Assembly: GCA_018970425.1 (NCBI GenBank)
Contig: JAGWWK010000003.1
Coordinates: 10,687-74,686 of the forward strand
Length of the DNA: 64,000 nt
Direction of reading: 5' to 3'
Origin: Patescibacteria group bacterium
GTDB taxonomy: Bacteria > Patescibacteriota > Minisyncoccia > Phycocordibacterales > Phycocordibacteraceae
Shown here: positions 8,631 to 42,946 of the stretch, in pieces
Layout: every line of letters begins with the position of its first letter
Position numbering within the stretch: position 1 is the stretch's first letter
Notes under the pieces: generated by a model
Databases searched by the model: none
Told to the model about the DNA's origin: nothing
What the model saw: the letters and a program-made list of their open reading frames with translations, nothing else
Position numbers and translations under genes: made by a program

Positions 8631-8635
8631 TACGC

Positions 8636-9220: not shown

Positions 9221-9247
9221 TCCTCAAGAGCGTTATACTTTAGGTGT

Positions 9248-9676: not shown

Positions 9677-9696
9677 AGCTGATACAATACTAACGA

Positions 9697-10365: not shown

Positions 10366-10368
10366 CAT

Positions 10369-12180: not shown

Positions 12181-12209
12181 CCTCCTGTTTCACTTGGTAT
12201 ACTATAGAT

Positions 12210-13124: not shown

Positions 13125-13125
13125 T

Positions 13126-13521: not shown

Positions 13522-13524
13522 TAC

Positions 13525-16214: not shown

Positions 16215-16227
16215 GCCTACCTCGGCA

Positions 16228-16362
16228 CTATACGGCGAGACGAGCGCGTCCTTTCTGTCGGCGACGAGCGAGTACTTTGCGACCTGCGGCCGTTTTTGAA
16301 CGGACAAGGAATCCGTGAGTAGTTGCTCGCTTGCGCTTTTTTGGTTGATATGTTCGTTTCAT
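16228..16362 (-). CDS. rpmH: 50S ribosomal protein L34 (not present in the ORF track)
   Basis: The minus strand translates to '[44 protein letters not shown]' (44 aa), a near-canonical L34. Confidence 0.9.
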
Positions 16363-29775: not shown

Positions 29776-29854
29776 TCTAACGTACCATCTTGTATTCCAT
29801 TCAGCGCGTCTGCGTTCAGCTGAGGATGCGCCCGCACTACATGACTCTTATTTG

Positions 29855-29927
29855 TCCGCCCTGTTGGACTCGAACCAACGACCCACTCCTTAAAAGGGAG
29901 CTGCTCTACCAACTGAGCTAAGGGCGG
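29855..29927 (-). tRNA. tRNA-Lys (anticodon TTT)
   Basis: Minus-strand sequence 'CCGCCCTTAGCTCAGTTGGTAGAGCAGCTCCCTTTTAAGGAGTGGGTCGTTGGTTCGAGTCCAACAGGGCGGA'. Cloverleaf with anticodon loop CTTTTAA. Confidence 0.8.
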
Positions 29928-30124
29928 ATGCAGTGATTATGCACTAAATTATGGCTCATTGCCACAGCCGGGGTCGGTTGATATCGCGCTTGCGCAATTC
30001 TACGAGAGGAGTATAGTACGCGCCATGTTAGAGTCTGCTATGACCAAACAGGACAAGTATAGTGCTGAAGGTTCCTTAGGTCCTCGTCTTGCAATAACTT
30101 GTGCTTGTATCGCCTTAGTTTTGT

Positions 30125-30637
30125 TTGGATTTGCAATCTACTTCACATGTAGTTCATCTGACGAAGAACTTGGCTAGTACCTATCTTATTCTTCACAACA
30201 TCCGCTCCGCGGAAAATGTTGGGTCACTCTTTCGCACCGCCGACGCATTCGGTGTTACTAAGATATACCTCACCGGATTTACACCGTCGCCGCTCGACCG
30301 GTTCAAGCGTCCGGTATCCAAAATAGCTAAGACCGCGCTCGGCGCGGAGCTCGTCGTTCCCTGGGAGTTTGGGCAGGTACATGTGTGTATAGAGCGACTG
30401 AAAGCCGAAGGTGTCCGTGTTGTTGCGCTCGAGCAGGACGCGCGGGCAGTCGAGCTTATGGCCTACTCCCGAAATGGGGATAGTGCGCTCATTCTCGGTA
30501 ACGAGGTTGATGGAATCGATGCAAGCACGCTCGAAAAAGCTGATGATGTTGTCCACATCCCGATGCACGGAGCCAAAGAGTCGCTCAATGTTGCAGTAGC
30601 TGGCGGGATAGCGCTCTACGCGCTTACTGAGCGTTAG
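30125..30637 (+). CDS. SpoU/TrmH-family RNA 2'-O-methyltransferase
   Basis: 'LILGNEVDGIDASTLEKADDVVHIPMHGAKESLNVAVAGGIALYAL' is the SpoU motif 2/3 region and 'NVGSLFRTADAFG' is motif 1. The start codon is uncertain (TTG). Confidence 0.75.
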   Translation: MDLQSTSHVVHLTKNLASTYLILHNIRSAENVGSLFRTADAFGVTKIYLTGFTPSPLDRFKRPVSKIAKTALGAELVVPWEFGQVHVCIERLKAEGVRVVALEQDARAVELMAYSRNGDSALILGNEVDGIDASTLEKADDVVHIPMHGAKESLNVAVAGGIALYALTER

Positions 30638-31557
30638 TAGGTAATTACGCTGACCACCTTATCGTTTTCATCAAGAAGCCGTATGCGTTCTGAGCGTGAA
30701 CGCCAGAGCTCAGAGTCGCGTGAGAGGAATAGGTACCATGTATCGCGATAGAAACCGGGCTGGGTCTTGTGCCGCGCCACGCATCCGTTATAGGAGAGTT
30801 CAGTAGTAACAAATTGTACGCACTGATTGCCCGCGGACCCAGGAACTGATTTTGTCGAGAACTCGCACCGCCCCAGAGAGCGGACGATCGACTCGCACTC
30901 GTCGGTGTAGGTACCTAGAGCAAAGTACGTGTCAGCTTCGGTAGTCGGTCGGGGGCAGTCTAGTGAAAGCGGAGGAGTGAAATCTTGGAATTGTTCAAAA
31001 TAGCCCGTACAGAGATTGGTGCGGAAGGATGTACCAATTGGCGATCGTTTTGTAATCAGGTACGCCGTATGTCCTGGTGCAAGTGCCACAGGTTCCGCGA
31101 TACTATTACTTCCTTGAGCAGGAAGCGCTACAGCAAGTGGCACGGCTACGCGTAGGCCGGAGACTGACGACTCTAGTTTCCATCCAGAAATAGTAATCGG
31201 ACTCTCAGCCGATGAATTTACACGAAGTGTGAGATACTCTCCATCAAGACTAGCGCTTGCAAGAGATGCTGATAGTGAGACGCGGTTGGCGTACGGTGAG
31301 CGCTCTTCCGTAATGGCTCCAAGGTATGTGGTAATGGTGGTAGATTTTGGGCCCTCGTCTTGACCTTCAGTACCACCGAGGAATACGCGTGGGATAGGTA
31401 TGCCCGGTATAGTAGACCCTTGCTGTTGGCTAAAGAGGGGACCGCCGCGCGCCAAATCACTTTCGGTTCCGCCAGTGTAGTACCAAGCAACACCGAGCGC
31501 TATCATCAGTAAAACGACTATCGCGAGATCTTGTTGAGGAGTACGTGCCATAGGCAC
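30634..31557 (-). CDS. membrane-anchored surface protein with a lamin-tail-domain-like (LTD) region
   Basis: N-terminal TM 'LAIVVLLMIALGVAW'. 'ISGWKLES..SGLRVAVP...TAYLITKRSP' and a C-terminal 'RLLDENDKVVSVITY' resemble the LTD fold signature. Confidence 0.45.
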   Translation of the reverse strand: MPMARTPQQDLAIVVLLMIALGVAWYYTGGTESDLARGGPLFSQQQGSTIPGIPIPRVFLGGTEGQDEGPKSTTITTYLGAITEERSPYANRVSLSASLASASLDGEYLTLRVNSSAESPITISGWKLESSVSGLRVAVPLAVALPAQGSNSIAEPVALAPGHTAYLITKRSPIGTSFRTNLCTGYFEQFQDFTPPLSLDCPRPTTEADTYFALGTYTDECESIVRSLGRCEFSTKSVPGSAGNQCVQFVTTELSYNGCVARHKTQPGFYRDTWYLFLSRDSELWRSRSERIRLLDENDKVVSVITY

Positions 31558-31568
31558 AGTATACCGCT

Positions 31569-32792
31569 CTACGAACGACGTGCCGTAAGCTCTTCACGAG
31601 TTACTCGAGCATCGTCCCACGGCGTCTTCTGTCCACGCGGACCCATAATGAAAGGATCAGTGCCTTTACCGGTTATTAGGACGGTGTCTCCTGGGGAAGC
31701 GAGTGTAAGTGCTTTTCGGATTGCCGCCCGTCGATCATAGATGATGTCTGCCGGACGAGTGAGTGCAACGGCCATTTCCTGCACTATTGTATGCGGATCT
31801 TCATCATAAGGATCTTCGTTTGTCAGAATGACGTGGGCACACTCGCGGTCTGCAATTGCTGCCATTTCGGGACGCTTCCACGTATCGCGGCCACCACCTG
31901 TGTTACCGAGGACGCAGATCTTACGTCCTGGAAACGCACGGTACAGGGCCGCAAGAGAGTCGGGCGTGTGTGCGTAGTCTACAATAACGGTAAAGTCTTG
32001 ACCCTCATCAATGTACTCAACGCGACCGCGTACCAGGTTTAGCTTTTCGAGCGCGCGTACACAGACCTCAGGTTGAATGCCGAGTGCGATTGCAGCTGTG
32101 AGCGCGCCAATCGCGTTAACTGCGTTAAAGCGACCGGATAGCGGGAGTCGCACCGCGTGTCCTTTCCAGGTAAAGAGCATTGCGCGGCCATCTTCGCGGA
32201 CATCAGGTATATCGCGTTCGCTGTAGGGCAGGGCGTGGTCGACCTGAGCGCTTAAGAATTTCGCGTTCCACTCATCATCGGTGTTTGCGACAATGGTGCG
32301 CGCTCTTTTCGGTGAGCGTTCAAGTTCTCGCACGAGGTCCCACTTGCGCGCAACATACGCGTCGAATGATCCGTGACTCTCAATGTGCTCTCGCTGCACA
32401 TTGGTCATGATCATGACATCGGGGTAAAGGAAAAGGTGTCGGTACTGCCGTGCACCTTCGGTCGTAAGTTCAACTATGGCGTGGGTTGCGCCTTTCAGAA
32501 TTGCACGGCGAAGGAATCGCTGAATGAAACCGCGTCCGGGCATCGTCATCTTCATTCGATTCGCCGTACTTTCTCCTCCGATTGCCGTGCGTATTGTGCC
32601 AACGAGCGCAGTTGTGTAGCCTGCCTCCGTGAGAATAGCAAAGAGCATTTCAGACACGGTAGATTTTCCTTTTGTGCCACCGACGCCAATCACCACCATG
32701 TTCCGAGCGGGGAATCGAGCGAGAATCGCCGCGGCGAGTTGGAGAGCAAAATGGTACGGGGGGCGCAGGTAGCGTTTCAGTATTCCGAGCAT
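31569..32792 (-). CDS. Mur ligase family protein, MurE-like
   Basis: ATP-binding 'VIGVGGTKGKSTVSEMLFAIL' and 'DYAHTPDSLAAL' (MurE-type 'DYAHTPDAL'). At 407 aa it is shorter than canonical MurE. Confidence 0.65.
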   Translation of the reverse strand: MLGILKRYLRPPYHFALQLAAAILARFPARNMVVIGVGGTKGKSTVSEMLFAILTEAGYTTALVGTIRTAIGGESTANRMKMTMPGRGFIQRFLRRAILKGATHAIVELTTEGARQYRHLFLYPDVMIMTNVQREHIESHGSFDAYVARKWDLVRELERSPKRARTIVANTDDEWNAKFLSAQVDHALPYSERDIPDVREDGRAMLFTWKGHAVRLPLSGRFNAVNAIGALTAAIALGIQPEVCVRALEKLNLVRGRVEYIDEGQDFTVIVDYAHTPDSLAALYRAFPGRKICVLGNTGGGRDTWKRPEMAAIADRECAHVILTNEDPYDEDPHTIVQEMAVALTRPADIIYDRRAAIRKALTLASPGDTVLITGKGTDPFIMGPRGQKTPWDDARVTREELTARRS

Positions 32793-32795
32793 ACG

Positions 32796-33365
32796 TTAGA
32801 GTGTACGCGATGCAAGTTTAATTGCTTCGCGTATCTTTTCTTCTGGACTCACCAGAGAGCGGGGTAGTGCACGCACTGCGTCCCGCGCTTCTTTTTGCGA
32901 GTATCCAAGGCCCACGAGTACCTCAAGGACCTCGTGATCAATGCCGGGTTCGGTGCCTTTATCAGGTGCGACCATCTTTTCACGCAATTCAAGCACTATT
33001 TTTTCTGCGGTTTTTTTTCCAATGCCGTACGCGCTTGAAAGCGCCTTCGCATCACCGCGGGCAATAGCGCTTCGAAGTGTCGCGCTCTCAACCGCATTCA
33101 TAACTGCAAGCGCTGACTTCGGTCCGACGCCTGAGACGGTAAGGAGGAGTTCAAAGCACATGAGATCATCTTTCTCCAGAAAGCCAAAAAGGTCGTCAGC
33201 TGTCTCACGTACAGCCTCGTGCGTGTACAACAAGACCTCTTGGCCGTCGGCGATGCGTGTCATGGTCTGCGCAGTTACTGCGATACGGTACCCGATCCCT
33301 CCTGTTTCAATGAGGAGATCTCCGCGAATCGTTCCTATCACTGTCCCACGTACGGAGCCAATCAT
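32796..33365 (-). CDS. ruvA: Holliday junction DNA helicase subunit RuvA (start trimmed to 'MIGSVRG')
   Basis: 'MIGSVRGTVIGTIRGDLLIETGGIGYRI' OB domain. HhH motifs 'LLTVSGVGPKSALAVM' and 'LVGLGYSQKEARDAV'. Confidence 0.85.
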   Translation of the reverse strand: MIGSVRGTVIGTIRGDLLIETGGIGYRIAVTAQTMTRIADGQEVLLYTHEAVRETADDLFGFLEKDDLMCFELLLTVSGVGPKSALAVMNAVESATLRSAIARGDAKALSSAYGIGKKTAEKIVLELREKMVAPDKGTEPGIDHEVLEVLVGLGYSQKEARDAVRALPRSLVSPEEKIREAIKLASRTL

Positions 33366-33403
33366 GGTTGCATTGTAGCGGTTTTTCGGGTACTGTACGA
33401 GCC

Positions 33404-33667
33404 ATGGCACTAAAGAAGTCCGCGAAGAAGGCGATTCGTTCATCGAAGCGCAAATTTGTTTTGAACTTGCGCCGCCGTCGCGCCGTGCATGACACGGTTA
33501 AGGCAGCGCGAAAGTCCGCAGGTGCGGATCGCGCCGCTCAAGACGCGGCACTTACAGAGGCGTACCAAGCGATAGACAAGGCGCTTAAGCGCGGCGTCAT
33601 TAAGAAGAACACTGCCGCACGCAAGAAGTCACGACTTGTGAAGTTCCTCAAAAAAGGAGGCAAATAG
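33404..33667 (+). CDS. rpsT: 30S ribosomal protein S20
   Basis: 'MALKKSAKKAIRSSKRKFVLNLRRR...' is typical basic S20. Divergent from ruvA, with a short shared spacer. Confidence 0.8.
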   Translation: MALKKSAKKAIRSSKRKFVLNLRRRRAVHDTVKAARKSAGADRAAQDAALTEAYQAIDKALKRGVIKKNTAARKKSRLVKFLKKGGK

Positions 33668-33675
33668 TCTCGAAA

Positions 33676-33702
33676 AAACCGCCCATCTGGGCGGTTTTTT
33701 AC
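33676..33702. terminator. rho-independent (bidirectional) terminator after rpsT
   Basis: 'aaaaaaccgcccatctgggcggtttttt'. Confidence 0.7.
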
Positions 33703-33841
33703 TTGGTACCCGCGACTCTCAGCTCACCCACGTTCACCTCGGTCGAGGCCCGCTCGTCGCGGTTTAGCGGAGGGTAAAACATCGCTGCAGTCATCATAAA
33801 AGCAGAAAACCTGCCGGCAGGGCAGGTATTTCAGTCTTTTG

Positions 33842-33913
33842 TGCTCCCGGCAGGAATCGAACCTACATTACAAGCTCCGCAAGCTTGCGTCCTATCCATT
33901 GAACGACGGGAGC
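33842..33913 (-). tRNA. tRNA-Arg (anticodon GCG, tentative)
   Basis: Minus-strand sequence 'GCTCCCGTCGTTCAATGGATAGGACGCAAGCTTGCGGAGCTTGTAATGTAGGTTCGATTCCTGCCGGGAGCA'. Anticodon loop TTGCGGA. Confidence 0.7.
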
Positions 33914-34080
33914 GAACGAGGAGCGCCGCGAACACTTGTTTTCATGGCGTCCGAGTGATGGTCCCGAAAGCCTGAGCTTACGGGAGCGAACGAGGAGCGC
34001 CGCGAACACTTGTTTTCATGGCGTCCGAGTGATGGTCCCGAAAGCCTGAGCTTACGGGAGCGAACGAGGAGCGCCGCGAA
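33907..34080. repeat. 74-bp tandem direct repeat, 2.35 copies, beginning inside the first 7 nt of tRNA-Arg
   Basis: Unit 'cgggagcgaacgaggagcgccgcgaacacttgttttcatggcgtccgagtgatggtcccgaaagcctgagctta' occurs at 33907, 33981 and 34055 (the last copy is partial, 26 nt). The copies are identical. Confidence 0.85.
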
Positions 34081-34167
34081 AATGTAAGTCCTGGCGTCAG
34101 CGTGTTGCCCCCGAACGCTGCGCGATAGGGAGCAATGCGCCTACTGTAGCACAAAGTCGTGATTTTT

Positions 34168-34650
34168 CTAGCCGATACCTATCCAGTCAGCGAGTCGAGC
34201 GGAGAACGAGTTAAGAGACTCGACTTCTTCGATATTGTGGTTCTTAAGTGCGGTGCGGACTGCGCGAAAGTCCGCACGTCGAAGCGGTACCGTTACCACC
34301 TTGACGAGTCCTTTATTGAGTGAGAACTGAAGCATTGTTGGGGTACCTCCGGTAGTATGATCATCAATTGCGAAGTTAGCGATCGCGGGAAATTCAAATA
34401 CCTGATCGCCCACATGAATACCGCGATCCGTTATTTTGAATAGGTGTAGCGCAGGGCGTCGCGATCCTGCGAGAGTGACAGTACCACCTGCGAGGAGAAG
34501 TATGATACCGAAGAGAAAGTTTCCGATAATGAATGCCGCTGTTGCGGAGCCAATCGATAGTATTCCTATTGACCAGTACCAAGTTGAGGTCTTGTGCACA
34601 AACTCGGTTTCAGTATCTTGCCAGGATGTATACACGACCGGCTGTTCCAT
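34168..34650 (-). CDS. hypothetical membrane protein (bacterial PH-domain-like topology)
   Basis: Two adjacent TM helices, 'WYWSIGILSIGSATAAFIIGNFLFGIILLLAGGTVTLAG', followed by a soluble domain. Confidence 0.4.
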   Translation of the reverse strand: MEQPVVYTSWQDTETEFVHKTSTWYWSIGILSIGSATAAFIIGNFLFGIILLLAGGTVTLAGSRRPALHLFKITDRGIHVGDQVFEFPAIANFAIDDHTTGGTPTMLQFSLNKGLVKVVTVPLRRADFRAVRTALKNHNIEEVESLNSFSARLADWIGIG

Positions 34651-34669
34651 AGGGGAAGTATACCTCGTG

Positions 34670-35044
34670 CTAGGCGTCGTTCAGTTTCACTGTGATTTTA
34701 TTGTTGATGATAGTTACAGACTCATGCGGAATAGACGCGCGAAAATGCTCAAATGCACCAGACCCGTCTTCCTCGCCTCTACACGAGTACAGTGAGAAGT
34801 AGATTGAGTTATGCTCGGGGTATGTGTGTATAGCCGCATGAGACTCTGCGAGTAGAACGAGTGTGGTATACCCAAGAGGCGTAAAGCGGTGGGGTAGAGA
34901 TCCGAGTACGGTAAAGTTGTCGATTTTTAAGCCCTCATGGAGTGTGGCGTCAATGAGTTCTATATTGTTGAGTACCTCGGGCGGAACGCCGTGGAAAACG
35001 GCGGAGATCTCGTTACCCGTGGCCGGAGATTGATAGTGTGTCAC
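34670..35044 (-). CDS. speD: S-adenosylmethionine decarboxylase proenzyme (small SpeH/SpeD-type, pyruvoyl-dependent)
   Basis: 'LVLLAESHAAIHTYPEH' matches the AdoMetDC 'ESHISIHTWPE' self-cleavage/active-site region. 124 aa. Confidence 0.7.
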   Translation of the reverse strand: MTHYQSPATGNEISAVFHGVPPEVLNNIELIDATLHEGLKIDNFTVLGSLPHRFTPLGYTTLVLLAESHAAIHTYPEHNSIYFSLYSCRGEEDGSGAFEHFRASIPHESVTIINNKITVKLNDA

Positions 35045-35187
35045 TGCAGTAGTTCATATTAGGTTCTGACAAAACGCCGCAGACGAATCGTACGACACGA
35101 GAAATGTAGCACCTCAGTGGAGTGGCGCAAGCGCATATGGTCATTAGTGTGTATAAGCGAGCTCATGCCGCGAGCTTACACGCGCGT

Positions 35188-35459
35188 CGTTCTCATCTCA
35201 CACGCGAGTGCTCCCAGCACCCGCTCGCTTCCGCTTACAAAAATAACCGCCTTGCGGCGGTATTTTTCTACGGCGGAGGCGGTGAGATTCGCCCGCGGCT
35301 CGGCGCTGCTGCGCCGGCCTGGGCACCGACTCGCGCGCCTCCGCGCGCTCCGTCGTTCTCATCTCACACGCGAGTGCTCCCAGCACCCGCTCGCTTCCGC
35401 TTACAAAAATAACCGCCTTGCGGCGGTATTTTTCTACGGCGGAGGCGGTGAGATTCGAA
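35188..35459. repeat. duplicated 108-bp segment: the tRNA-Ser 3' end (21 nt), its terminator hairpin and about 60 nt of flank, present twice 164 bp apart
   Basis: 35188-35295 is identical or near-identical to 35352-35459. Copy B runs into the intact tRNA-Ser; copy A carries only the 3'-terminal 21 nt plus 'aaaaataaccgccttgcggcggtattttt'. Confidence 0.8.
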
Positions 35460-35525
35460 CTCACGGTCCAGTTACCCGGACGCCTGATTTCAAGTCAGGT
35501 GCTTTAGACCACTCAGCCACACCTC
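35439..35525 (-). tRNA. tRNA-Ser (anticodon TGA), long variable arm
   Basis: Minus-strand sequence 'GGAGGTGTGGCTGAGTGGTCTAAAGCACCTGACTTGAAATCAGGCGTCCGGGTAACTGGACCGTGAGTTCGAATCTCACCGCCTCCG'. Anticodon loop CTTGAAA and discriminator G73. Confidence 0.8.
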
Positions 35526-35579
35526 CGCTTAGGATACTAGCGTGTTTTGCCTAAGATATCAAAAGGATATACTGCAGGT

Positions 35580-35972
35580 ATGCCACGACTCATGGGTATC
35601 GACTTTGGTGCGAAGCGGGTCGGCGTCGCGCTTTCAGACGAAAGCGGAAAGGTAGCGTTCCCAAAGGCCGTGCTGCCGAACGACCGCATGCTTGTCGGGG
35701 AGCTGGTTGCGTTTGCGAAGACGTACGGTATTTCAGAAATCGTCATGGGTGAATCTAAGGGGAATAGGGGAGAGGATAACCCGATTGCGGAACGCGCTCG
35801 AGCGCTCGCCGCCGAGCTCAAGCGAGAGACGGGCGCCGAGCTCCACTACGAGCCGGAGTACTATTCATCGCAGGAAGTGAGAATGCATACGGGTGCCTCG
35901 CGCGTCGATGCCGAGGCTGCGGCGGTCATACTTAATAGTTTTTTAACCAAACGATATGGCAGTCACGATTGA
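35580..35972 (+). CDS. ruvX: Holliday-junction resolvase-like / pre-16S rRNA nuclease YqgF
   Basis: 'MPRLMGIDFGAKRVGVALSD' is the YqgF/RuvX N-terminus with its catalytic Asp. The ORF track starts further upstream at 35547. Confidence 0.75.
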   Translation: MPRLMGIDFGAKRVGVALSDESGKVAFPKAVLPNDRMLVGELVAFAKTYGISEIVMGESKGNRGEDNPIAERARALAAELKRETGAELHYEPEYYSSQEVRMHTGASRVDAEAAAVILNSFLTKRYGSHD

Positions 35973-36279
35973 TCAGTTTAGTGCCCTTGAGATCCGTATT
36001 GGCACCGTTGCAAGCGCTGAGCGGGTGCCGGACTCAGATAAGTTACTGCGGCTTACCGTAGACTTTGGTGAGGAGACGCACCGACAGATACTCTCAGGTA
36101 TTGCTGAGTACATTCAACCGGAGGATTTAGTCGGACGGCAGTTTCCATTTGTCACAAACCTCGAGCCACGCGTGATCCGCGGCCACGTGTCGAATGGTAT
36201 GTTACTTGCAATTGGTGATGATGGCATTGCGCTTATGTCCCCGAGTCGCGCCGTGCGACCTGGTGCTGAAGTGCGCTAG
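35956..36279 (+). CDS. tRNA-binding domain protein (CsaA/Trbp111/EMAP-like OB fold)
   Basis: 'LEIRIGTVASAERVPDSDKLLRLTVDFGEE.HRQILSGIAEYIQPEDLVGRQFPFVTNLEPRVIRGHVSNGMLLA' is the Myf-domain consensus. Confidence 0.75.
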   Translation: MAVTIDQFSALEIRIGTVASAERVPDSDKLLRLTVDFGEETHRQILSGIAEYIQPEDLVGRQFPFVTNLEPRVIRGHVSNGMLLAIGDDGIALMSPSRAVRPGAEVR

Positions 36280-36283
36280 CTCT

Positions 36284-36892
36284 ATGACACTCCTCGCACG
36301 CCTTCAGACGCAAATAATTCGATACTGGCTCGGGTTTAAAGATATTGTTGTTGCCGGGCGCGCGTACCCATTCTTAGCCGGACTTTCTTTTTTTGAATCC
36401 TTCCTCATTGCGATACCCGTTGACCCGTTTCTTGCCGCGATAGTGATTGCGGATCGAACGCGGTGGGTCTATGCGGCATGTATTGCGACTGTGAGCTCAA
36501 CGGCGGGAGCTCTTGTAGGGTACGCGCTTGGCTACTTTGCGTTCGACCTCATTCGAGACTGGTTTTTCGCGGTGAGTGAGTCGTCACGGCTGTTGCAGCG
36601 CATAGTAGAACTTTTTTCCGAGAACGCCGTAGCGCTTACGTTTGCCGCAGCACTCACTCCAATCCCCAACGGGCCAGTGGTTATTGCCGCAGGGTTCGTT
36701 GGGACGGCACTCATCTGGTTTTTACTTGCATGGGTCGTTGCGCGTGCCATCCGATTTTTCGGTGTGGCGTATATTGTGTACGCGTTTGGGCAAGACACGC
36801 TCTCGCAGTCAGAACGATTTCTCAATATCGCGACCATTGTGCTTGCCCTCGTGCTTCTGGGTTGGTTTATGATCGCGGCGTCAGGGTTCTGA
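36284..36892 (+). CDS. DedA/SNARE-associated family membrane protein
   Basis: 'YPFLAGLSFFESFLIAIPVDPFLAAIVIADR' is the DedA signature. Start trimmed to ATG 36284, directly after the upstream stop. Confidence 0.65.
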   Translation: MTLLARLQTQIIRYWLGFKDIVVAGRAYPFLAGLSFFESFLIAIPVDPFLAAIVIADRTRWVYAACIATVSSTAGALVGYALGYFAFDLIRDWFFAVSESSRLLQRIVELFSENAVALTFAAALTPIPNGPVVIAAGFVGTALIWFLLAWVVARAIRFFGVAYIVYAFGQDTLSQSERFLNIATIVLALVLLGWFMIAASGF

Positions 36893-36900
36893 CCACGTGA

Positions 36901-37986
36901 GTGCCGTATACTATGGGTATGTACTCGCGCATCGCGACCTATGTCGCGCAGTTTGTGCCACGCTCGCTCGCACCTCGCATCGCGGGTATTGAGATTGCAA
37001 GCACATTTGTACGTGCCGTAACAATTCCGAGCGACGATGGGTCGTGTGAGTTTCTCACCGTGACGCTTGGAGACAGTGCGCGAACGGGCGGCGCGCCCAA
37101 TACTCGAGCGCTCACCGACGCGCTCCGCACGGTGCGCCTTAAACTCGGTTCTCTTCATGCCGTGGTCAGTGTCGCAGAGCGGAAAACATTTCTGTACGAA
37201 ACAGTTGCGCGCGATGTGCACCATATACGTGAGGCAATTGAGTCGACGCTCGAGGCACGCGTACCGCTTCGGGCTGAAGATGTGGTGTGTGATGGGGAAA
37301 TTGTGCGCACTGTTCCTGAAGGGGTAGTCGTTGCCGTGACAGCTCTCCCTCGGGCTGACGTGCTCGCTATTCACACGGCGTCTCGAGACGCAGGGCTTAT
37401 GATTCGCGCCATTGAAACTGAATCCCACGCATTCGCTCGAGCAGTGCTTCACAGTACAGAGCCTGAAAGCGTACTCCTTGTTGACCTTGGGGCGCATGCT
37501 ACACGGATTGCCATTACTGATCACGGCGTGGTCGCGTACGCTGCCTCGGTAGACTTTGGCGTGAAGCTTTTTACATCCGCGATTATGAAGCGTTTATCCA
37601 TTTCAGAAGGGGAGGCGGAGGCGATTCGCATGCAGCGCGGATTTCTTTTAGGTGATGGAAATCGCGATGTGGTTGAAGCACTTGCCGGGCCAGTCTCTGC
37701 TCTGCGTGACGAATTTGAGCGCCATCGTTCATTCTGGAACCATGCTCCTGATCTAGAAGTATCCCGGCTTCCGATCTCGCGCGTGATTCTTGGCGGAGCA
37801 GGTGCCGCGACGCATGGAATTGCAGAGTATCTGTCGGACGCCCTCGGATTACCCGTTATTCAGGCGGACATATGGGCGCACGCTCTAAGAGGCGGTGCGC
37901 TTCCAAAGATGACTGCTAGTGAAGCGTTAGACTACGGAACGGCAGTCGGACTGGCACGACGATATCGCCCGACAGACCCATGGTAA
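36901..37986 (+). CDS. pilM: type IV pilus assembly protein PilM (actin-like ATPase fold)
   Basis: 'IAGIEIASTFVRAV' and 'VLLVDLGAHATRIAITDHGVVAYAASVDFG' are the actin-like phosphate motifs. Followed by pilN/pilO-like genes. Confidence 0.75.
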   Translation: MPYTMGMYSRIATYVAQFVPRSLAPRIAGIEIASTFVRAVTIPSDDGSCEFLTVTLGDSARTGGAPNTRALTDALRTVRLKLGSLHAVVSVAERKTFLYETVARDVHHIREAIESTLEARVPLRAEDVVCDGEIVRTVPEGVVVAVTALPRADVLAIHTASRDAGLMIRAIETESHAFARAVLHSTEPESVLLVDLGAHATRIAITDHGVVAYAASVDFGVKLFTSAIMKRLSISEGEAEAIRMQRGFLLGDGNRDVVEALAGPVSALRDEFERHRSFWNHAPDLEVSRLPISRVILGGAGAATHGIAEYLSDALGLPVIQADIWAHALRGGALPKMTASEALDYGTAVGLARRYRPTDPW

Positions 37987-38528
37987 ATCTACTCACTGAA
38001 GAGATGCGGCGTGAGCGTACCAAGCGGTATATCCGTGCCGTGGGTGATGTATGGTTGACCGTACTCGCGACAAGTATTGCACTTTTGGGTCTCGTTCTTA
38101 TCCCCGTATACATCATGGCTCGCTCGGCAGAAGAGGAGGGTGCGCAGTATCTTGCCGCGGCGGTTCAGATTGCCGAGCGGCGTGAACAGCTGGGTGCACT
38201 TCAAGAAATGGCTGAGCTCACTGAGCGGGTGCGTGTAGTTTCGGAAACACAGCGCTCGCGTCCGTATATGTCGCGAATTGTGCAAACCGTTTCGCAGAGC
38301 GCTTCACCGATTTCTATATCTGAAATTTCACTAACGGCGATTGCTGAGAGTGCTGCGGCAGTCACGATACGTGGTACTGCCGCGTCGAGAGCCGCGCTCG
38401 TTTCCTACACGAACGATCTGAAAGATGTGCCAGAGATCTCCGCACTATCGCTGCCGGTTTCCGCATACGCAGGGGATCGTAACGCTCCATTTACCATATC
38501 CTTTCGCTGGTCAGAACCTGCACCATGA
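37980..38528 (+). CDS. pilN: PilN-like type IV pilus assembly protein (single N-terminal TM)
   Basis: 'MVNLLTEEMRRERTKR' (equivalent to the PilN 'INLLP' start), then TM 'VWLTVLATSIALLGLVLIPVYIM' and a coiled-coil. Confidence 0.6.
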   Translation: MVNLLTEEMRRERTKRYIRAVGDVWLTVLATSIALLGLVLIPVYIMARSAEEEGAQYLAAAVQIAERREQLGALQEMAELTERVRVVSETQRSRPYMSRIVQTVSQSASPISISEISLTAIAESAAAVTIRGTAASRAALVSYTNDLKDVPEISALSLPVSAYAGDRNAPFTISFRWSEPAP

Positions 38529-39016
38529 AAACGCTACTCCGTGTGATTATTCTGTGCGTGTGCCTCATTGGTGTCGGTATCCTGGCATCTGAAACAGGAC
38601 GCGCGATTACTGCGGCTGCACGCACGCGTGCCGAGATTATGGCTCTCTCCGAGCGAGATGAAGGCACGCAGCGTGCGGCACGGTTCCTCTCGGAACAGCG
38701 CGCGACTACGAATGCCATTGATGCGTATGTACTTGATGTTGATGATGTCCCTCGAGCAATCGAGCTCATAGAGACTGCCGCCAAGCGGGCGCGAATCACT
38801 GCCTCAGTAGGATCTCTCTCTGCAGTGCCAGTGGGCGAGTATCACGATCGTCTCACAGTGACGGTGAGCGTGGAAGGGTCGCGTGCCGTGCACGAGCGGT
38901 TTATAGAGACACTGAACTCGCTTCCGTCCGCGTCAACAATCGCCTCGATATCGCTACAGGGAACGGAGCGAGGCTGGTTCGGGACCTACACGATTGCGTT
39001 TGTCCAAAAAAAATAA
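38525..39016 (+). CDS. pilO: PilO-like type IV pilus assembly protein (N-terminal TM + periplasmic domain)
   Basis: TM 'LLRVIILCVCLIGVGILA'. Operon position after pilM and pilN. Confidence 0.45.
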   Translation: MKTLLRVIILCVCLIGVGILASETGRAITAAARTRAEIMALSERDEGTQRAARFLSEQRATTNAIDAYVLDVDDVPRAIELIETAAKRARITASVGSLSAVPVGEYHDRLTVTVSVEGSRAVHERFIETLNSLPSASTIASISLQGTERGWFGTYTIAFVQKK

Positions 39017-39302
39017 TATGCACTTTTTTCCACTGATGAGGATTCGAAACGTGTTCCGTCCTACGCCGTATCCATTGCGCGACTGGCTACTGATGATCGG
39101 TAGTACAGGGGTTTTGGTAAGTACGGGTTTTATGTACGCGTTTTCGCTTTGGAGACAGGCAGAAGTTGCGATAGTCCATAGCGCAGTTCCAAGCGTCGAC
39201 ACGGTCCCGATCTCAGCTGAAGTACTCGCGGAGCTCCGAGCGGCTATTGAAGAGCGCACTGCTCGGTATGAGGGTATGGGAACTCAAAACGTGAGTCGAT
39301 AA
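38994..39302 (+). CDS. small membrane protein downstream of pilMNO (possible PilP-like component)
   Basis: One TM, 'WLLMIGSTGVLVSTGFMYAF'. Call based on operon position only. Confidence 0.3.
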   Translation: MRLSKKNNMHFFPLMRIRNVFRPTPYPLRDWLLMIGSTGVLVSTGFMYAFSLWRQAEVAIVHSAVPSVDTVPISAEVLAELRAAIEERTARYEGMGTQNVSR

Positions 39303-39350
39303 TCAAAAAAATGCGTCTGTGGTATAGTGCTCAAAGGCTTCTGAGCAAGG

Positions 39351-39424
39351 GGCCCCGTAGTTCAATGGATAGAACAGGAGACTTCTAAGCTCTTGATCGA
39401 GGTTCGATTCCTCGCGGGGCCACA
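39351..39424 (+). tRNA. tRNA-Arg (anticodon TCT)
   Basis: 'GGCCCCGTAGTTCAATGGATAGAACAGGAGACTTCTAAGCTCTTGATCGAGGTTCGATTCCTCGCGGGGCCA'. The anticodon loop CTTCTAA matches bacterial tRNA-Arg(UCU). Confidence 0.75.
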
Positions 39425-39427
39425 TGC

Positions 39428-39500
39428 GGGCGATTAGCTCAGTTGGTAGAGCAGCGCTTTTACACAGCGAAGGTCACAGGTTCGAGTCCTGTATCGCCCA
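39428..39500 (+). tRNA. tRNA-Val (anticodon TAC, tentative)
   Basis: 'GGGCGATTAGCTCAGTTGGTAGAGCAGCGCTTTTACACAGCGAAGGTCACAGGTTCGAGTCCTGTATCGCCCA'. Perfect 7-bp acceptor; anticodon loop TTTACAC. Confidence 0.6.
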
Positions 39501-39607
39501 CAATAACTAACGAGCCCCGACCATGCGTCGGGGCGACGTAGTTTGTATGGCACTGCAAAATGTGTAGCTAATACCTTTTCAGAGAGAAATAGTGTACAGT
39601 TGCGCTC

Positions 39608-40285
39608 ATGCACGTTCCGCGTGTACTAGGCATTATTCTCGACGGTAACCGGCGCTGGGCGCGTCAGCGCGGACTTCCGACGAGGGAAGGGCACGCTGAG
39701 GGGGCGCGGCGGGTTCGCGATGTAGTCGATTGGGCTAAAGAAACTGGCCACATAACAGACATATTTTTCTACACATTTTCAACCGAGAACTGGAAGCGCA
39801 ACTCGCTTGAAATCGAGCACCTATTGCTTCTCATGGAGCTGTTCTTTAAGACGCGCGGCGAGGAACTTGCGAGAGCCAACGTGCGTATTCGTATTGCAGG
39901 GCAGCGCGAGCGATTCTCCCCAAAGCTCCGGACGATGTTCGCAGCGCTTGAAGAGCGAACAAAAAATAATACGGGGATTACTGTCTGGTTTGGTCTCTCA
40001 TACGGCGGGAGAGCTGAAATTCTTGACGCGCATTTTAAGCTGGCGAATGAAAAAAAGATCCCTACTGAAGCAGAGCTCAAGGCGGCAATGTGGACCGCTG
40101 ATCTTCCAGATCCTGACATCATTGTGCGCACGGGCGGTGAGCAGAGACTTTCTAATTTTCTTACATGGGGGTCGGTATACGCGGAGCTCTTTTTCACAAA
40201 AACACTCTGGCCGGATATGACGCGGGAGGAGTTCACGGCCATTATTAGAGAGTTTGGCAAACGTCAGCGTAGAATGGGTGCATAG
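39608..40285 (+). CDS. uppS: undecaprenyl diphosphate synthase (cis-prenyltransferase)
   Basis: 'HVPRVLGIILDGNRRWA' catalytic motif and an 'RTGGEQRLSNFL'-like C-terminus. Confidence 0.85.
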   Translation: MHVPRVLGIILDGNRRWARQRGLPTREGHAEGARRVRDVVDWAKETGHITDIFFYTFSTENWKRNSLEIEHLLLLMELFFKTRGEELARANVRIRIAGQRERFSPKLRTMFAALEERTKNNTGITVWFGLSYGGRAEILDAHFKLANEKKIPTEAELKAAMWTADLPDPDIIVRTGGEQRLSNFLTWGSVYAELFFTKTLWPDMTREEFTAIIREFGKRQRRMGA

Positions 40286-41327
40286 TATGCAGCAGCCAGG
40301 CGATGTTCTTGCTCTTCTGGGTTCGTACGGTTCACGTGTTGATGCCGAGGCGCGCACATTTCTTGAGCGCGGTCCGTACGCGATGTATGGAATGATGCGG
40401 TACTTCATGGGCTACGCAGACGAGAACCTCGTATCCGTTGCCGAGTGTTTTGGCGGCAAGCGATTCCGCTCCGGACTCCTCTTACTTATTGCTGATCAAT
40501 ATGGAGCACTCGAGGATGCGGTACCGCTTGCGCTCTCGATAGAGTTGTTCCATAACTTCACGCTTATTCATGACGACATCGTTGATCGAGATGAAATGCG
40601 GCGCGGGCGCCCTACCGTGTGGAAACTCTGGGGCAGTGACCACGCAATAAATACCGGCGATGGGCAGCTACTCCTTGCGCTTGAAGCGCTCGAAAGGGCG
40701 CATCCAGCCCGTCGCGATCGCGCGCGGCCATTCTTTCTTGAAAAATATCGTGAGGTAATTGAGGGGCAGTACTTGGATTTTGAGCTGACCGCGTACTCGC
40801 TGAATGATCCGCGCACCACTGAAGCCGCGTATCTTGAGATGCTCACCAAGAAAACAAGCGTGCTTGTCGGTGCGGCGACTGCAGGCGCGGGTATCGCGGC
40901 GCTCATGCGGGACGAAGAGCTTGAACGGCTATGGAACTTTGGCCTCGCACTTGGTCGCGCGTATCAGATATGCGATGACACGGTTTCAATATGGGGCTCG
41001 GGCGATATGACTGGAAAGGTGCCCCATGGCGATGTGCGAGAGCGAAAAAAAACTCTGCCCGTGCTTATAGCGTATGAGCGACTCACTGGCACTTCTCGAG
41101 ATGAATTTGCCCACCTGTACGGTAGTAAAAAGTCGCTTTCCGCAGACGAAATTCAGCGTGCCATAGCACTTATGAACTCGGTTGACGCGTACGGAGCGGC
41201 TCGTGCGCGAGTAGACCGTGAAGCAGGCTACGCGCGGCAAGCCGCAGATTCGCTCGCTATCCCAGAGGTAGGTAAAGAGCTATTAGGTTCGCTAGTGACG
41301 ACACTTTTACCGCGAGTGACAGTATGA
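40254..41327 (+). CDS. trans-polyprenyl diphosphate synthase (IspA/IspB family)
   Basis: First Asp-rich motif 'LIHDDIVDRD' and second 'ICDDTVSIWG' (DDxxD). Confidence 0.8.
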   Translation: MANVSVEWVHSMQQPGDVLALLGSYGSRVDAEARTFLERGPYAMYGMMRYFMGYADENLVSVAECFGGKRFRSGLLLLIADQYGALEDAVPLALSIELFHNFTLIHDDIVDRDEMRRGRPTVWKLWGSDHAINTGDGQLLLALEALERAHPARRDRARPFFLEKYREVIEGQYLDFELTAYSLNDPRTTEAAYLEMLTKKTSVLVGAATAGAGIAALMRDEELERLWNFGLALGRAYQICDDTVSIWGSGDMTGKVPHGDVRERKKTLPVLIAYERLTGTSRDEFAHLYGSKKSLSADEIQRAIALMNSVDAYGAARARVDREAGYARQAADSLAIPEVGKELLGSLVTTLLPRVTV

Positions 41328-42046
41328 ACGACCTGCCAGTACTGTACGAAGACGCTTCGGTTGTTGTAGTGAACAAACCTGCTGGCCTCATCGTACACTC
41401 AGACGGGCGTACGGTTGAACCGTCCGTAGCGGACTGGGTCGCAGGTCGCTACCCAGATACTCGAACGGTTGGTGAGCCGTGGATGTCTCCCCAGGGAACA
41501 CTAGTTCCGCGACCGGGCATTGTACACCGTCTCGATAGAACGACGTCTGGTGTTTTAGTGATCGCAAAAACTGCTGAGGCGTACGCGTCGCTTAAAAAGC
41601 AGTTTCAGGATCGGACGGTTGAGAAGGAATACGCAGCTATCGTGTACGGAACTGTGCGTGATGACCGAGGGCGCATAGAACGCGAGATTGTACGAGTGAA
41701 GAGTGTGCCACCACGGTGGGGTGTTTCATTCGGAACTGAAAACAAGAAGCGTGCCGCGGTCACTGATTGGGCAGTCTTGCGCCGATTTTCGATTGCGGGT
41801 GAGCCATACACGCTACTTTCAGTGTGTCCGCGCACCGGACGTACACATCAGATACGGGTACACCTCAAAGCGCTCGGGCACCCCATCGTGTGTGACCACT
41901 TGTATGCGGCACAGAAGTCGTGCCCATCGGGACTCTCACGCCCTGGACTTCATGCGTACCGGATTACCTTCACGACACTCTCTGGGGAGCGTCGTACTGT
42001 CGAGGCGCCGCCCCCAGCAGATCTTGGGTTTGCGTATGAGGCGTGA
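41324..42046 (+). CDS. RluA-family pseudouridine synthase
   Basis: Catalytic 'HRLDRTTSGVLVIAKT' with 'YAAIVYG'. ATGA-coupled to the upstream gene. Confidence 0.8.
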   Translation: MNDLPVLYEDASVVVVNKPAGLIVHSDGRTVEPSVADWVAGRYPDTRTVGEPWMSPQGTLVPRPGIVHRLDRTTSGVLVIAKTAEAYASLKKQFQDRTVEKEYAAIVYGTVRDDRGRIEREIVRVKSVPPRWGVSFGTENKKRAAVTDWAVLRRFSIAGEPYTLLSVCPRTGRTHQIRVHLKALGHPIVCDHLYAAQKSCPSGLSRPGLHAYRITFTTLSGERRTVEAPPPADLGFAYEA

Positions 42047-42067
42047 ATATGCTATTTTTCTGACACT

Positions 42068-42544
42068 ATGGGAGTAGTCATGGATGTCAAAAAGCTCACG
42101 CCAGTGAAAACCACTGACCGCAAGGCATTGGGGATACGTGCGGGTGATACCGTACGCGTGCACCAGAAAATTGTCGAAAAGGGTAAAACCCGTATTCAGA
42201 TCTACGAAGGGCTGGTTATCGCAACGAAGCATGGCACCGAAATCGGAGCAACATTTACTGTACGAGCAGTTATGTCTCAGATTGGAGTAGAGAAGACATT
42301 CCCGCTCTACTCACCGCTCATTGATAAGATTGAAATCATTCGACGCTCTAAAGTTCGCCGAGCAAAGCTCTACTACATTCGTGATCGCGCGTCCCGCGAG
42401 ATCCGCCGTTCGCTACGTAATATGATCAGCGTTAATCTTTCAGCAGGCGGTAAAGAAGAGGAGGTGATTGCGACCGAGGTTGAAGATACAACTAACGAAG
42501 CGCCGATTGAGGCAAACCCAGCGGCCGAGCCAAAAGCAGAGTAA
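42068..42544 (+). CDS. rplS: 50S ribosomal protein L19 with a C-terminal extension
   Basis: '[41 protein letters not shown]' is the L19 core; about 40 aa of acidic tail follows. Confidence 0.85.
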
Positions 42545-42551
42545 CCAACGT

Positions 42552-42578
42552 ACCGCCCGAAAGGGCGGTTTTTTTGCG
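42552..42578. terminator. rho-independent terminator after rplS
   Basis: 'accgcccgaaagggcggtttttttg'. Confidence 0.7.
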
Positions 42579-42666
42579 CGACGCCGCCTCGGGCCAGCCC
42601 TCCGGTTTTAAAGTCCATGGGGCAGGTACTAAAAAATCCGGCGTGTGCCGGATTCTTTACTACCTG

Positions 42667-42740
42667 CGCGAGAGACGGGACTTGAACCCGCAACCTCCGC
42701 CGTGACAGGGCGGCGCTCTAACCAGTTGAGCTACCCCCGC
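42667..42740 (-). tRNA. tRNA-Asp (anticodon GTC)
   Basis: Minus-strand sequence 'GCGGGGGTAGCTCAACTGGTTAGAGCGCCGCCCTGTCACGGCGGAGGTTGCGGGTTCAAGTCCCGTCTCTCGCG'. Anticodon loop CTGTCAC. Confidence 0.8.
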
Positions 42741-42891
42741 AAGTGAGGAAGAAAGTAGCCGCGTGCGGATACTTTTTCCGAACGTCGCGGGAGGCAAGTA
42801 TTGCTTACCCCCGCAAGTGAGGAAGAAAGTAGCCGCGTGCGGATACTTTTTCCGAACGTCGCGGGAGGCAAGTATTGCTTACCCCCGCAAG
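42732..42891. repeat. 74-bp tandem direct repeat, 2.16 copies, beginning inside the first 9 nt of tRNA-Asp
   Basis: Unit 'tacccccgcaagtgaggaagaaagtagccgcgtgcggatactttttccgaacgtcgcgggaggcaagtattgct' occurs at 42732 and 42806, with a partial copy (12 nt) at 42880. Confidence 0.85.
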
Positions 42892-42946
42892 CCCGTTTAA
42901 TGTATCGCAAAATCATGCTTTTTACAACGCGCGCTATACTTGAGGT

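Follow-up and report, generated by a model that had tools for sequence, protein, structure and literature searches.

The 74-bp tandem repeats which precede two transfer RNA (tRNA) genes in a Patescibacteria genome are stacked copies of a small non-coding module. Each module folds into two hairpins and sits between the promoter and the first base of the tRNA. The repeats are located at tRNA-Arg(GCG) and tRNA-Asp(GTC) within a 64-kb stretch of contig JAGWWK010000003.1, referred to here as the window. We lean slightly towards the reading that they are tandem copies of an insertion module which is specific for tRNA 5′ ends and belongs to one clade of Patescibacteria. The evidence comprises a family of such units, their exact position at tRNA genes, a two-hairpin anatomy with compensatory changes in the second hairpin, an empty site in a relative, and arrays which combine units of different types. 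A preliminary description, made from the letters of the window alone, had judged a tRNA-linked mechanism likelier than coincidence and had proposed a look at other tRNA genes. This judgement is borne out, since modules occur at the 5′ ends of many different tRNAs in related genomes.

Two arrays of identical units

Tandem Repeats Finder, run on the whole window, reports a 74-bp period at 33906–34080 (2.4 copies, 100% matches) and a second 74-bp period at 42732–42891 (2.2 copies, 100% matches). A separate repeat search of the window recovered the same copies at both arrays, a further exact repeat at tRNA-Ser (described below) and no comparable repeat elsewhere in the 64 kb. The genes and units described in this section are on the minus strand.

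The intact tRNA-Arg(GCG) gene occupies 33841–33913 (ARAGORN; Rfam tRNA, 61.2 bits). Its first base (+1) is abutted by a proximal unit of 74 nucleotides (nt), at 33914–33987 (81.9 bits with the covariance model R1 introduced below; RNAfold; Tandem Repeats Finder). A second copy, 100% identical to the proximal one, follows at 33988–34061 (Tandem Repeats Finder; 81.9 bits with R1). Beyond it lies a third, diverged unit of 72 nt at 34062–34133, which resembles the other two (nhmmer E 5e-6; R1 49.7 bits; fold). This third unit opens with the pseudo-5′ end GCTCCCT, and its identity to the other Arg units is confined to the last 19 nt. At the second locus, the intact tRNA-Asp(GTC) gene (42666–42740; ARAGORN, Rfam) is preceded by a proximal 74-nt unit at 42741–42814 (R1 62.4 bits; RNAfold) and by a 100% identical second copy at 42815–42888 (Tandem Repeats Finder; R1 62.4 bits). 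In what follows, the Arg type is called alpha and the Asp type beta.

The first 8 nt of mature tRNA-Arg and the first 9 nt of mature tRNA-Asp are contained in the respective arrays. Nucleotides 1–8 of tRNA-Arg(GCG) (GCTCCCGT) recur at the start of every upstream unit. Judging from the sequence, the first 9 nt of the distal beta copy are the original place of the tRNA-Asp 5′ end relative to the promoter. The units themselves are not tRNAs: ARAGORN and Rfam (at the gathering score and down to E=10) give no match, and RNAfold predicts two hairpins and no cloverleaf.

Several points of the preliminary description can be settled here. The 74-bp tandem repeat at tRNA-Arg is real and its copies are identical, but its coordinates had been placed one base off and the diverged third unit at 34062–34133 had been overlooked. 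The view that the units lack a cloverleaf agrees with all three programs. The same architecture had correctly been recognized at tRNA-Asp; the Asp unit had been called unrelated, yet one covariance model matches both types. A match between unit length and tRNA length, to which attention had been drawn, is incidental: family members measure 66–88 nt, mostly 72–78, and arrays of 74 bp reflect this typical size without bearing on tRNA length. Lastly, the Arg and Asp arrays had been listed as the tRNA-linked repeats, but exact repeats overlap a tRNA end at three of the six tRNAs of the window (Arg-GCG, Asp and Ser), the Ser case having been missed.

Anatomy and fold of the unit

Read in the sense of the tRNA, a unit begins with 6–9 nt which match the host tRNA's own beginning fully or nearly so; (U)AAG usually comes next. 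This copy of the tRNA start pairs with a complementary 6–7-nt segment 12–14 nt downstream to form hairpin 1. An inner stem lengthens the helix to ~11–13 bp, which is the length of an acceptor/T-arm minihelix. Hairpin 2 comprises ~33–40 nt and has the same geometry in the alpha and beta types. The unit closes with a 6-nt tail, TCRYTC, directly before tRNA +1. Hairpin 2 has a hexamer like this tail in front of it, and there is covariation between two bases of that hexamer and two of the tail. In the proximal alpha unit, hairpin 1 (the acceptor-stem mimic) is located at 33960–33987, hairpin 2 at 33920–33952 and the tail, TCGTTC, at 33914–33919. In the proximal beta unit, the two hairpins occupy 42787–42814 and 42743–42783, respectively.

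The two-hairpin fold is obtained with RNAfold for every unit folded. Folding of the leader had been proposed in the preliminary description, and the minimum-energy fold of the whole precursor preserves the tRNA cloverleaf. An alignment of 11 units yields a consensus hairpin with compensatory changes in 11 of its 15 pairs. For hairpin 2, 21 distinct units were aligned by fitting to model R1, which biases the following counts towards structure: 93% of the cells are paired vs 70.5% in shuffles, both-sided changes occur in 13 of the 15 pairs, none of 500 shuffles reaches the observed score, and slid controls stay at or below 58%.

The ends of the unit were also examined. The prefix identical to the tRNA spans 8–9 nt in the freshest copies, 4–6 nt elsewhere and 21 nt in the D-loop cases described below; its boundary is blurred by decay and by the TAAG which belongs to the unit itself. 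The 3′ strand of hairpin 1 is not copied from the 3′ strand of the tRNA: it has another discriminator base and does not keep the G3:U70 pair of tRNA-Ala. Comparison by eye shows no inverted repetition between the two unit ends, and such inverted repeats as are present correspond to the internal hairpins.

A number of known classes were considered and rejected. A hammerhead or another small ribozyme does not fit, as the CUGANGA/GAAA core is not conserved and no Rfam match was obtained. A tRNA primer-binding site would call for CCA after the 3′ strand, where none is found. An open reading frame (ORF) of 13 amino acids (MKTSVRGAPRSLP) in the alpha unit lacks a Shine-Dalgarno sequence and is missing from the beta units. 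Variable spacers, as in CRISPR-like or TIGR-like arrays, are absent from the units, and integron attC cassettes are excluded by the lack of both core site and integrase.

A family of units at tRNA 5′ ends

Relatives of the units were first seen in a repeat scan of related contigs, where a 40-nt core of the Arg unit is 87.5% identical upstream of tRNA-Val in L008 (labels of this kind denote related or comparison loci of this analysis). A degenerate core motif derived from the Arg unit matched nine metagenome contigs and no viral contig. It adjoins a tRNA 5′ end in all nine, on the strand antisense to the tRNA.

The covariance model R1 was then built from the alignment of 11 units, with the Asp unit included. 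The search space of 1.31 Mb consisted of the window and 90 loci, mostly from unrelated bacteria and archaea. All 25 matches fall in the Patescibacteria relatives, the clade of the window. They include both unit types of the window, its third Arg unit and 18 more copies, which come from nine contigs of related Patescibacteria. Exact placement is the rule: in 22 of these matches the last base is precisely position −1 of a tRNA or of the next unit. Three exceptions (in L008, in its duplicate L089 and the distal one in L092) lie within the D-loop of a tRNA copy which is disrupted and closely followed by an intact one. With the filters switched off, the only sequences of the window at or above 49.6 bits are its five units, and the next match has 13.6 bits. 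By this model, a single structural family embraces the Arg and Asp units, which represent its alpha and beta types.

Host tRNAs of the family are Arg-GCG, Arg-TCT, Arg-CCG, Asp, Leu-CAG, Ile, Val, Pro and Ala. Two or three units are often stacked in an array, and L093 carries two units at each of its three tRNAs. Mixed alpha/beta arrays are found in L087, with the order beta-alpha-beta, and in L093. Units at other tRNAs in other genomes reach core identities of up to 93–98%. In the loci which were not picked by the core motif, 4 of 24 tRNAs are occupied (R1 and tRNA survey).

To date, this family has no counterpart in the resources consulted. In Rfam 15, only tRNAs reach the gathering score in the window and nine related loci, and there is no credible weak match in 33700–35600. 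Phage, plasmid and viral collections gave no match to the units, and literature searches returned no paper describing such tRNA-5′-end modules in bacteria.

Promoters and the pre-tRNA leader

Where a tRNA gene of the clade carries no unit, the distance from the end of a −10-like box to +1 is 7–12 nt. Examples are tRNA-Ser of the window, with the promoter TTGATA-17-TAGTAT (35534–35562, minus strand; promoter scan), which ends 7 nt before +1, and tRNA-Lys among others. This spacing implies that native pre-tRNA leaders are short; they seem to comprise only ~0–5 nt, although rnpA is present (15909–16307). Occupied tRNAs show the same −10 spacing, but relative to the most distal pseudo-5′ end, a rule which L090, L091 and L092 also follow.

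At tRNA-Arg, a putative extended −10 element, TGcTACAGT, was identified by eye at 34143–34151 (minus strand), 9 nt upstream of the distal pseudo-5′ end at 34133; a simple scan missed it. This box is the likely promoter of the whole leader and tRNA-Arg. At tRNA-Asp, the putative promoter TTGTAA-17-TACATT (42899–42927, minus strand) is suggested by the sequence and by the alignment to L084, and lies under the threshold of the simple scan. Its TACATT box at 42899–42904 is situated 10 nt before 42888. The promoter scan found no promoter-like site inside either array, and the −10 boxes are placed just outside. The preliminary description had offered repeated promoter modules as one of three options, and this option does not agree with the position of the boxes. 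From the lack of promoter-like sites in the units and the spacing of the distal promoter, we infer that the units are transcribed. They are probably part of a pre-tRNA leader of 148–220 nt, which would be removed by an RNase P cut at the real +1.

A long leader of another kind precedes tRNA-Arg(TCT). It comprises 22 nt after TATAGT (39329–39350, plus strand), which is unusual, and contains a small hairpin (GCTCAaaggcttcTGAGC); it shows no match to the unit model. The tRNA-Val gene is found 4 nt after this tRNA-Arg(TCT).

An empty site and signs of movement

The locus L084 originates from another metagenome and encodes a HIT protein 81% identical to that of the window, next to the same divergent promoter region. 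In this relative, TTGAAA-17-TACATT is followed after 10 nt directly by an identical tRNA-Asp, with no unit in between. When 42741–42888 is removed from the window, the remaining sequence is colinear with L084 (identity 119/132). The window consequently has 148 extra bases, that is two 74-nt units, between the promoter and tRNA-Asp. The contigs of two other HIT homologues, P0004 and P0006, are not syntenic and have no tRNA-Asp near the HIT gene.

Occupancy also differs between orthologous genes: tRNA-Arg(GCG) is preceded by alpha units in the window, by beta in L006 and by no unit in L005, L008, L085 and L088. In hairpin 1 of the Arg(GCG) unit, the 3′ strand (CGGGACC) is a perfect partner for the acceptor strand of tRNA-Arg(TCT), GGTCCCG, which has a near-identical unit in L091. 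With its own GCTCCCG, the same strand leaves a C-C mismatch. In addition, the alpha linker has a mean pairwise identity of 88% across ten hosts, vs 78–85% for orthologous tRNAs.

The D-loop insertions provide a further view of the family. In L008 (9565–9688; the same in L089) and L092 (~322–478), alpha-like units are found after GGTA in the D-loop of a tRNA-Val or tRNA-Ile copy, which decays thereafter; an intact tRNA copy with its own promoter is located downstream. These units are joined at the short homology GTA. After the tail comes a foreign acceptor fragment, GCCG[A/T]AGTA, and then the interrupted tRNA resumes.

Within arrays, the tRNA-proximal unit fits the tRNA 5′ end better than the distal one in the Arg array of the window and in the Arg and Ala arrays of L093. 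This better match suggests that new units enter where the array meets the tRNA.

An insertion of another type was noticed in L047, an unrelated metagenome-assembled genome. At ~3750–4069, 318 nt separate a duplicate of tRNA-Glu nt 1–22 from the intact tRNA-Glu. By eye, this insertion contains a candidate small GIY-YIG-like protein of ~80 amino acids. A nuclease gene inside a tRNA 5′-end duplication could be a possible lead to mechanism.

Presence of the repeats in sequencing reads

The Arg, Asp and Ser repeats are present in the reads and are not products of assembly. We examined Logan assemblies (k=31, one per sequencing run) of the runs SRR32006835 and SRR31802043, using contigs L001–L003 with their flanking genes included. 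L002 and L003 break off at window position 42862, which is exactly 30 nt in from the distal edge of the Asp array. In L001, the end at 34051 lies 30 nt within the Arg array, and the start at 35214 lies 30 nt within the distal copy of the tRNA-Ser repeat. Given the behaviour of de Bruijn graphs, contig stops at k−1 (30 nt) mean that a segment of at least 31 nt is genuinely repeated in the reads. A single unit with a flanking duplication of 12 nt could not break a k=31 contig; hence at least two units are present in the reads of two runs, while the precise count is that of the assembly.

An assembly artefact had been named in the preliminary description as one outcome which would undo the observation. 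An artefact of assembly or sequencing could take the form of an arbitrarily traversed graph loop or of chimeric reads. Exact identity, ~2.x copies at both loci and an array size of 160–175 nt near short-read length are what an artefact might produce, and the copy number is that given by the assemblies. These traits are outweighed by the breaks at k−1 in all three repeats, which place the junctions in the reads of at least two runs. Furthermore, the family is seen in contigs from differing projects and assemblers, and related 3′-type modules occur in the single-cell genome L005. We consider an artefact barely credible.

Proposed mechanism and alternative explanations

If the units are insertion modules, the following sequence of events can be envisaged. 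New units would enter at the junction next to the tRNA and duplicate tRNA nt 1 to ~9, by means of a machinery which acts in trans and is not encoded in the window. A single insertion would yield direct repeats of the 8–12-nt tRNA start; at the Arg locus, the direct repeat measures 27 nt because the older unit shares the last 19 nt. The promoter would stay upstream of the most distal unit, and the units would be transcribed as a long pre-tRNA leader. RNase P could remove them by cutting at the real +1, and cuts at the pseudo +1 sites would also be possible. Hairpin 1 would sequester the duplicated acceptor strand, which could then not compete with the real strand for the 3′ strand of the tRNA. 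The identical neighbours at Arg and Asp could stem from a second insertion from the same source, or from slippage or unequal exchange between the flanking direct repeats. Mixed arrays elsewhere indicate that re-insertion does occur in the family. Among the three options of the preliminary description, a tRNA-targeting element is the best fit, as the module is found at many different tRNAs.

Several observations weigh against an insertion module. No integrase, transposase, reverse transcriptase or homing nuclease was detected in the 64-kb window (Pfam; 63 ORFs). A precise loss between the flanking repeats would explain the empty site of L084 equally well, and gain is not proven. Some host tRNAs keep their unit type across genomes (Leu-CAG in four contigs; Arg-CCG, with beta then alpha, in two), which agrees with long vertical residence and a host function no less than with mobility. 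The fitting of the complementary strand of hairpin 1 to many acceptor stems has no known mechanism. The complementarity itself is moderate: 6 of 7 pairs are reached by 67% of units vs 24% of mismatched controls, a comparison blurred by off-by-one unit starts. Lastly, wobble counts (16 G-U vs 11 A-C pairs, one column dominating each) do not indicate which strand folds.

The main rival takes the units as functional leader elements encoded by the host, vertically inherited and neither selfish nor mobile. Such elements might guide or pace RNase P processing, shield the 5′ end or yield a small leader RNA; on occasion, a deletion between the duplicated tRNA ends would remove them, and ordinary recombination would copy them from one tRNA gene to another. 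This account and that of an insertion module do not exclude each other. It draws on conservation equal to or above that of the tRNAs, on the compensatory changes which maintain hairpin 2, on the tailoring of hairpin 1 to each host tRNA and on the persistence of unit types at Leu-CAG and Arg-CCG across contigs. A second structured family downstream of tRNAs, on the same strand, and the absence of a nearby mobility gene in the 64-kb window point the same way, and precise loss would produce the state of L084. It is at odds with the clade at large, where most tRNAs have no unit (4 of 24 occupied in loci not chosen by the motif), and with the orthologues of tRNA-Arg(GCG), which carry alpha, beta or no unit as listed above. 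In addition, the D-loop insertions destroyed tRNA copies and carry a foreign acceptor fragment, and mixed-type arrays of two or three units are functionally hard to justify. Taken as the whole explanation, we regard a host element as unlikely, though deserving serious attention.

Two other origins can be considered. The units could be scars of site-specific integration, either remnants left after deletion of an element body or cis-mobilisable pieces, with tandem copies arising by accretion. Inserted DNA is indeed flanked by tRNA-end direct repeats, the tRNA is regenerated and tandem arrays occur; the 3′-type repeats described below even begin in the T-loop or T-stem, the classic crossover region of integrases. 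Random deletion remnants would not be expected to share a uniform size and a conserved two-hairpin anatomy across tRNAs and genomes, and the 5′-end location, with conserved sequence reaching tRNA −1, also argues against a scar. The window has no integrase among its 63 ORFs, no full-length element with these ends was found at any of the 25 places, where all units are bare, and there was no match to phage, plasmid or viral contigs. Integration scars are in our view improbable. A purely local tandem duplication of a native leader, by slippage or transcription-replication conflict at two highly expressed, head-on tRNA genes and with the equal period due to chance, is more doubtful still. It would account for copies which are 100% identical, and the short direct repeats flanking the units favour slippage. 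Both tRNAs are on the strand opposite to dnaA (16458–17807, plus strand) and to its right, hence probably head-on to replication. As an origin of the unit, local slippage is ruled out by the distribution of the R1 family and by the empty site, for the native leader of the close relative L084 lacks the unit, which is found at other tRNAs in other genomes. What slippage can provide is the step from one to two identical units. The slippage hotspot offered by the preliminary description retains this part and fails to explain where the unit came from.

A more specific form of mobility can also be considered, to which we assign a rather low probability. The units might be mobile modules whose boundaries, from pseudo +1 to −1, are set by RNA processing, with an RNA or a unit-length circular intermediate. 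Each unit would then be the exact piece between two RNase P cleavage sites, and hairpin 1, as a guide or mimic, could steer insertion towards tRNA gene 5′ ends. The D-loop insertions, with their foreign acceptor fragment, would be accounted for by a single crossover at the short homology GTA. Together with the 3′-end family, such a process would amount to a non-coding bacterial mobilome confined to tRNA gene ends and exploiting tRNA processing enzymes.

A second family at tRNA 3′ ends

The repeat at tRNA-Ser belongs to a different family. The tRNA-Ser(TGA) gene (35438–35526, minus strand; ARAGORN, Rfam) ends in an exact 107-nt direct repeat, whose copies at 35185–35291 and 35351–35457 have a spacing of 166 nt. 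The final 20 nt of the tRNA form its start, and it contains a duplicated terminator. The corresponding 3′-type module (35185–35437, minus strand) comprises a full 166-nt element at 35272–35437 and the first 87 nt of a second copy at 35185–35271. Within the 166-nt element are a terminator, a segment antisense to the tRNA 3′ end, the CGGAGC-hairpin core and a repeat of the 20 nt which end the tRNA.

Modules of this type, ~110–200 nt long, follow many tRNAs of the clade. Single-sequence nhmmer searches located them at 14 places, each 44–249 nt downstream of a tRNA and on the same strand; among these are the tRNA-Ser repeat and the weak module after tRNA-Arg(GCG) in the window, and the tandem pair of L005 described below. 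In related contigs, at least 13 tRNAs have such a module downstream. A terminator-like hairpin is followed by a segment antisense to the T-arm and 3′ acceptor strand of the tRNA, by a conserved core (CGGAGC-hairpin-GCGAG[G/T]CGG[G/T]G), by a long variable hairpin and by a direct copy of the last 11–20 nt of the tRNA. The antisense segment and the tRNA-end copy form a closing helix. RNAalifold gave no consensus on a MAFFT alignment of these modules, as the arm lengths are too variable, and Rfam contains no match for the family. Homology between the antisense of the 5′ unit (GAACGAGGAGCGCCGCG) and the 3′-type core (GAACGACGGAGCGCGCGG) was considered and rejected, the similarity being too short and GC-rich.

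A weak, degenerate 3′-type module without a tRNA-end copy was detected 47 nt downstream of tRNA-Arg(GCG) (33708–33794, minus strand; nhmmer with the L093 tRNA-Pro query, E 1e-4). Modules may thus lie on either side of this tRNA gene. Two tandem 191-nt 3′-type modules which differ by one mismatch follow tRNA-Arg(TCT) at 8644–9025 of the single-cell genome L005. The pair is arranged back to back with the 3′-type module of a convergent tRNA-Val.

Genomic setting and significance

Pfam annotation identifies the window as ordinary chromosome around rnpA-yidC-jag and dnaA-dnaN, and its HIT protein shares 100% identity with a Patescibacteria group bacterium entry of NCBI. The minus-strand genes tRNA-Lys, Arg-GCG, Ser and Asp (29854–42740) lie on the right-hand side of dnaA, where replication probably meets them head-on. 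Modules are found at three of these four head-on tRNAs vs neither of the two co-directional ones (Arg-TCT and Val), although these numbers are very small. Near the replication origin region, at 3955–14727, PrgI-like, TraG/VirB4-like ATPase and type IV secretion pilin domains are encoded among large proteins without Pfam match. This cluster may be a type IV secretion or conjugation-like system. A PilM-like protein of the window had no relative in the species genomes searched, and no record matched its S20 protein exactly. CCA is not encoded in any tRNA gene seen. In bacteria, the tRNA-Arg which reads CGN codons usually has the anticodon ACG, edited to inosine; in the window and in L005, L006, L008, L085 and L088, the anticodon of this tRNA is GCG.

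Large integrative elements of bacteria and retrotransposons of eukaryotes are known to insert at tRNA genes. Searches of Rfam, of the phage, plasmid and viral collections and of the literature revealed no structured modules of ~74 nt which carry no gene, sit exactly at bacterial tRNA 5′ ends and have a hairpin fitted to the acceptor stem of each tRNA. If the units are mobile, the mechanism must recognize the promoter-tRNA junction or the acceptor sequence, with nucleic acid as a possible guide. Host elements would instead point to a layer of processing or regulation of pre-tRNAs in Patescibacteria which has so far gone unrecognized; the tRNA genes of this group otherwise have hardly any leader. 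In practice, the modules break short-read assemblies at tRNA genes. Their pseudo-5′ ends could mislead tRNA annotation and the mapping of transcript ends, and unit arrays may serve as fast-evolving strain markers.

Comparison with known systems

Integrative elements, cis-mobilisable elements (CIMEs) and att accretion share several traits with the units: a tRNA-end direct repeat flanks the insert, the tRNA is regenerated, and re-insertion gives tandem arrays. As in att duplication, the direct repeats are formed from the part of the tRNA gene between the crossover and the gene end. Unlike integrative elements, the units are 66–88 nt long, geneless, located at the 5′ end, conserved up to tRNA −1 and folded into two hairpins with an acceptor-stem mimic. 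Moreover, neither an integrase (window) nor a full-length parent (25 family places) was found for them.

Short, non-coding, hairpin-forming and multi-copy sequences which are probably moved in trans include repetitive extragenic palindromic sequences (REP) and bacterial interspersed mosaic elements (BIME), IS200/IS605-derived palindrome-associated transposable elements (PATEs) and MITEs (miniature inverted-repeat transposable elements; Correia, RUP). The units resemble them in all these respects, and also in that such repeats are sometimes co-transcribed with neighbouring genes. In contrast to these repeats, the units have a fixed position and orientation at tRNA genes instead of a scattered intergenic spread, and a part of each is tailored to the acceptor stem of its host tRNA. 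The terminal inverted repeats which characterize MITEs are absent from the unit ends when these are compared by eye. No Y1 transposase (RAYT or TnpA) is encoded in the window; the units, though hairpin-bearing, are flanked by a tRNA-end duplication and restricted to tRNA +1.

The characters of retroelements are likewise absent, as the units have no ORF, the window no reverse transcriptase, and Rfam reports no intron family. Ty3 and the Dictyostelium elements TRE5 and DGLT-A are retrotransposons which integrate at fixed distances upstream of tRNA genes (PMC6101501, PMC5911963). Like the units, they are position-specific just upstream of tRNA genes, which act as safe havens in compact genomes. 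Unlike the units, which are 74-nt, non-coding, bacterial and inside the leader, these are protein-coding retroelements targeted via RNA polymerase III factors.

On the RNA side, analogues are provided by tRNA minihelices, by model substrates of RNase P and by small RNAs cut from tRNA precursors, such as the 3′ETS of leuZ and mascRNA. Hairpin 1 resembles a minihelix in its ~11–13-bp helix which opens with acceptor-strand sequence, and differs in lacking a T-loop, CCA and a kept discriminator or identity elements (G3:U70 of tRNA-Ala). For RNase P, rnpA is present and the length of the hairpin-1 helix is compatible with a substrate; cleavage would be expected on the 5′ side of hairpin 1 and at tRNA +1. 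A unit between two potential RNase P sites could be freed as a discrete RNA, as are the small RNAs from tRNA precursors. Taking these likenesses and differences together, we file the units as a variant of site-specific, non-autonomous structured repeats.

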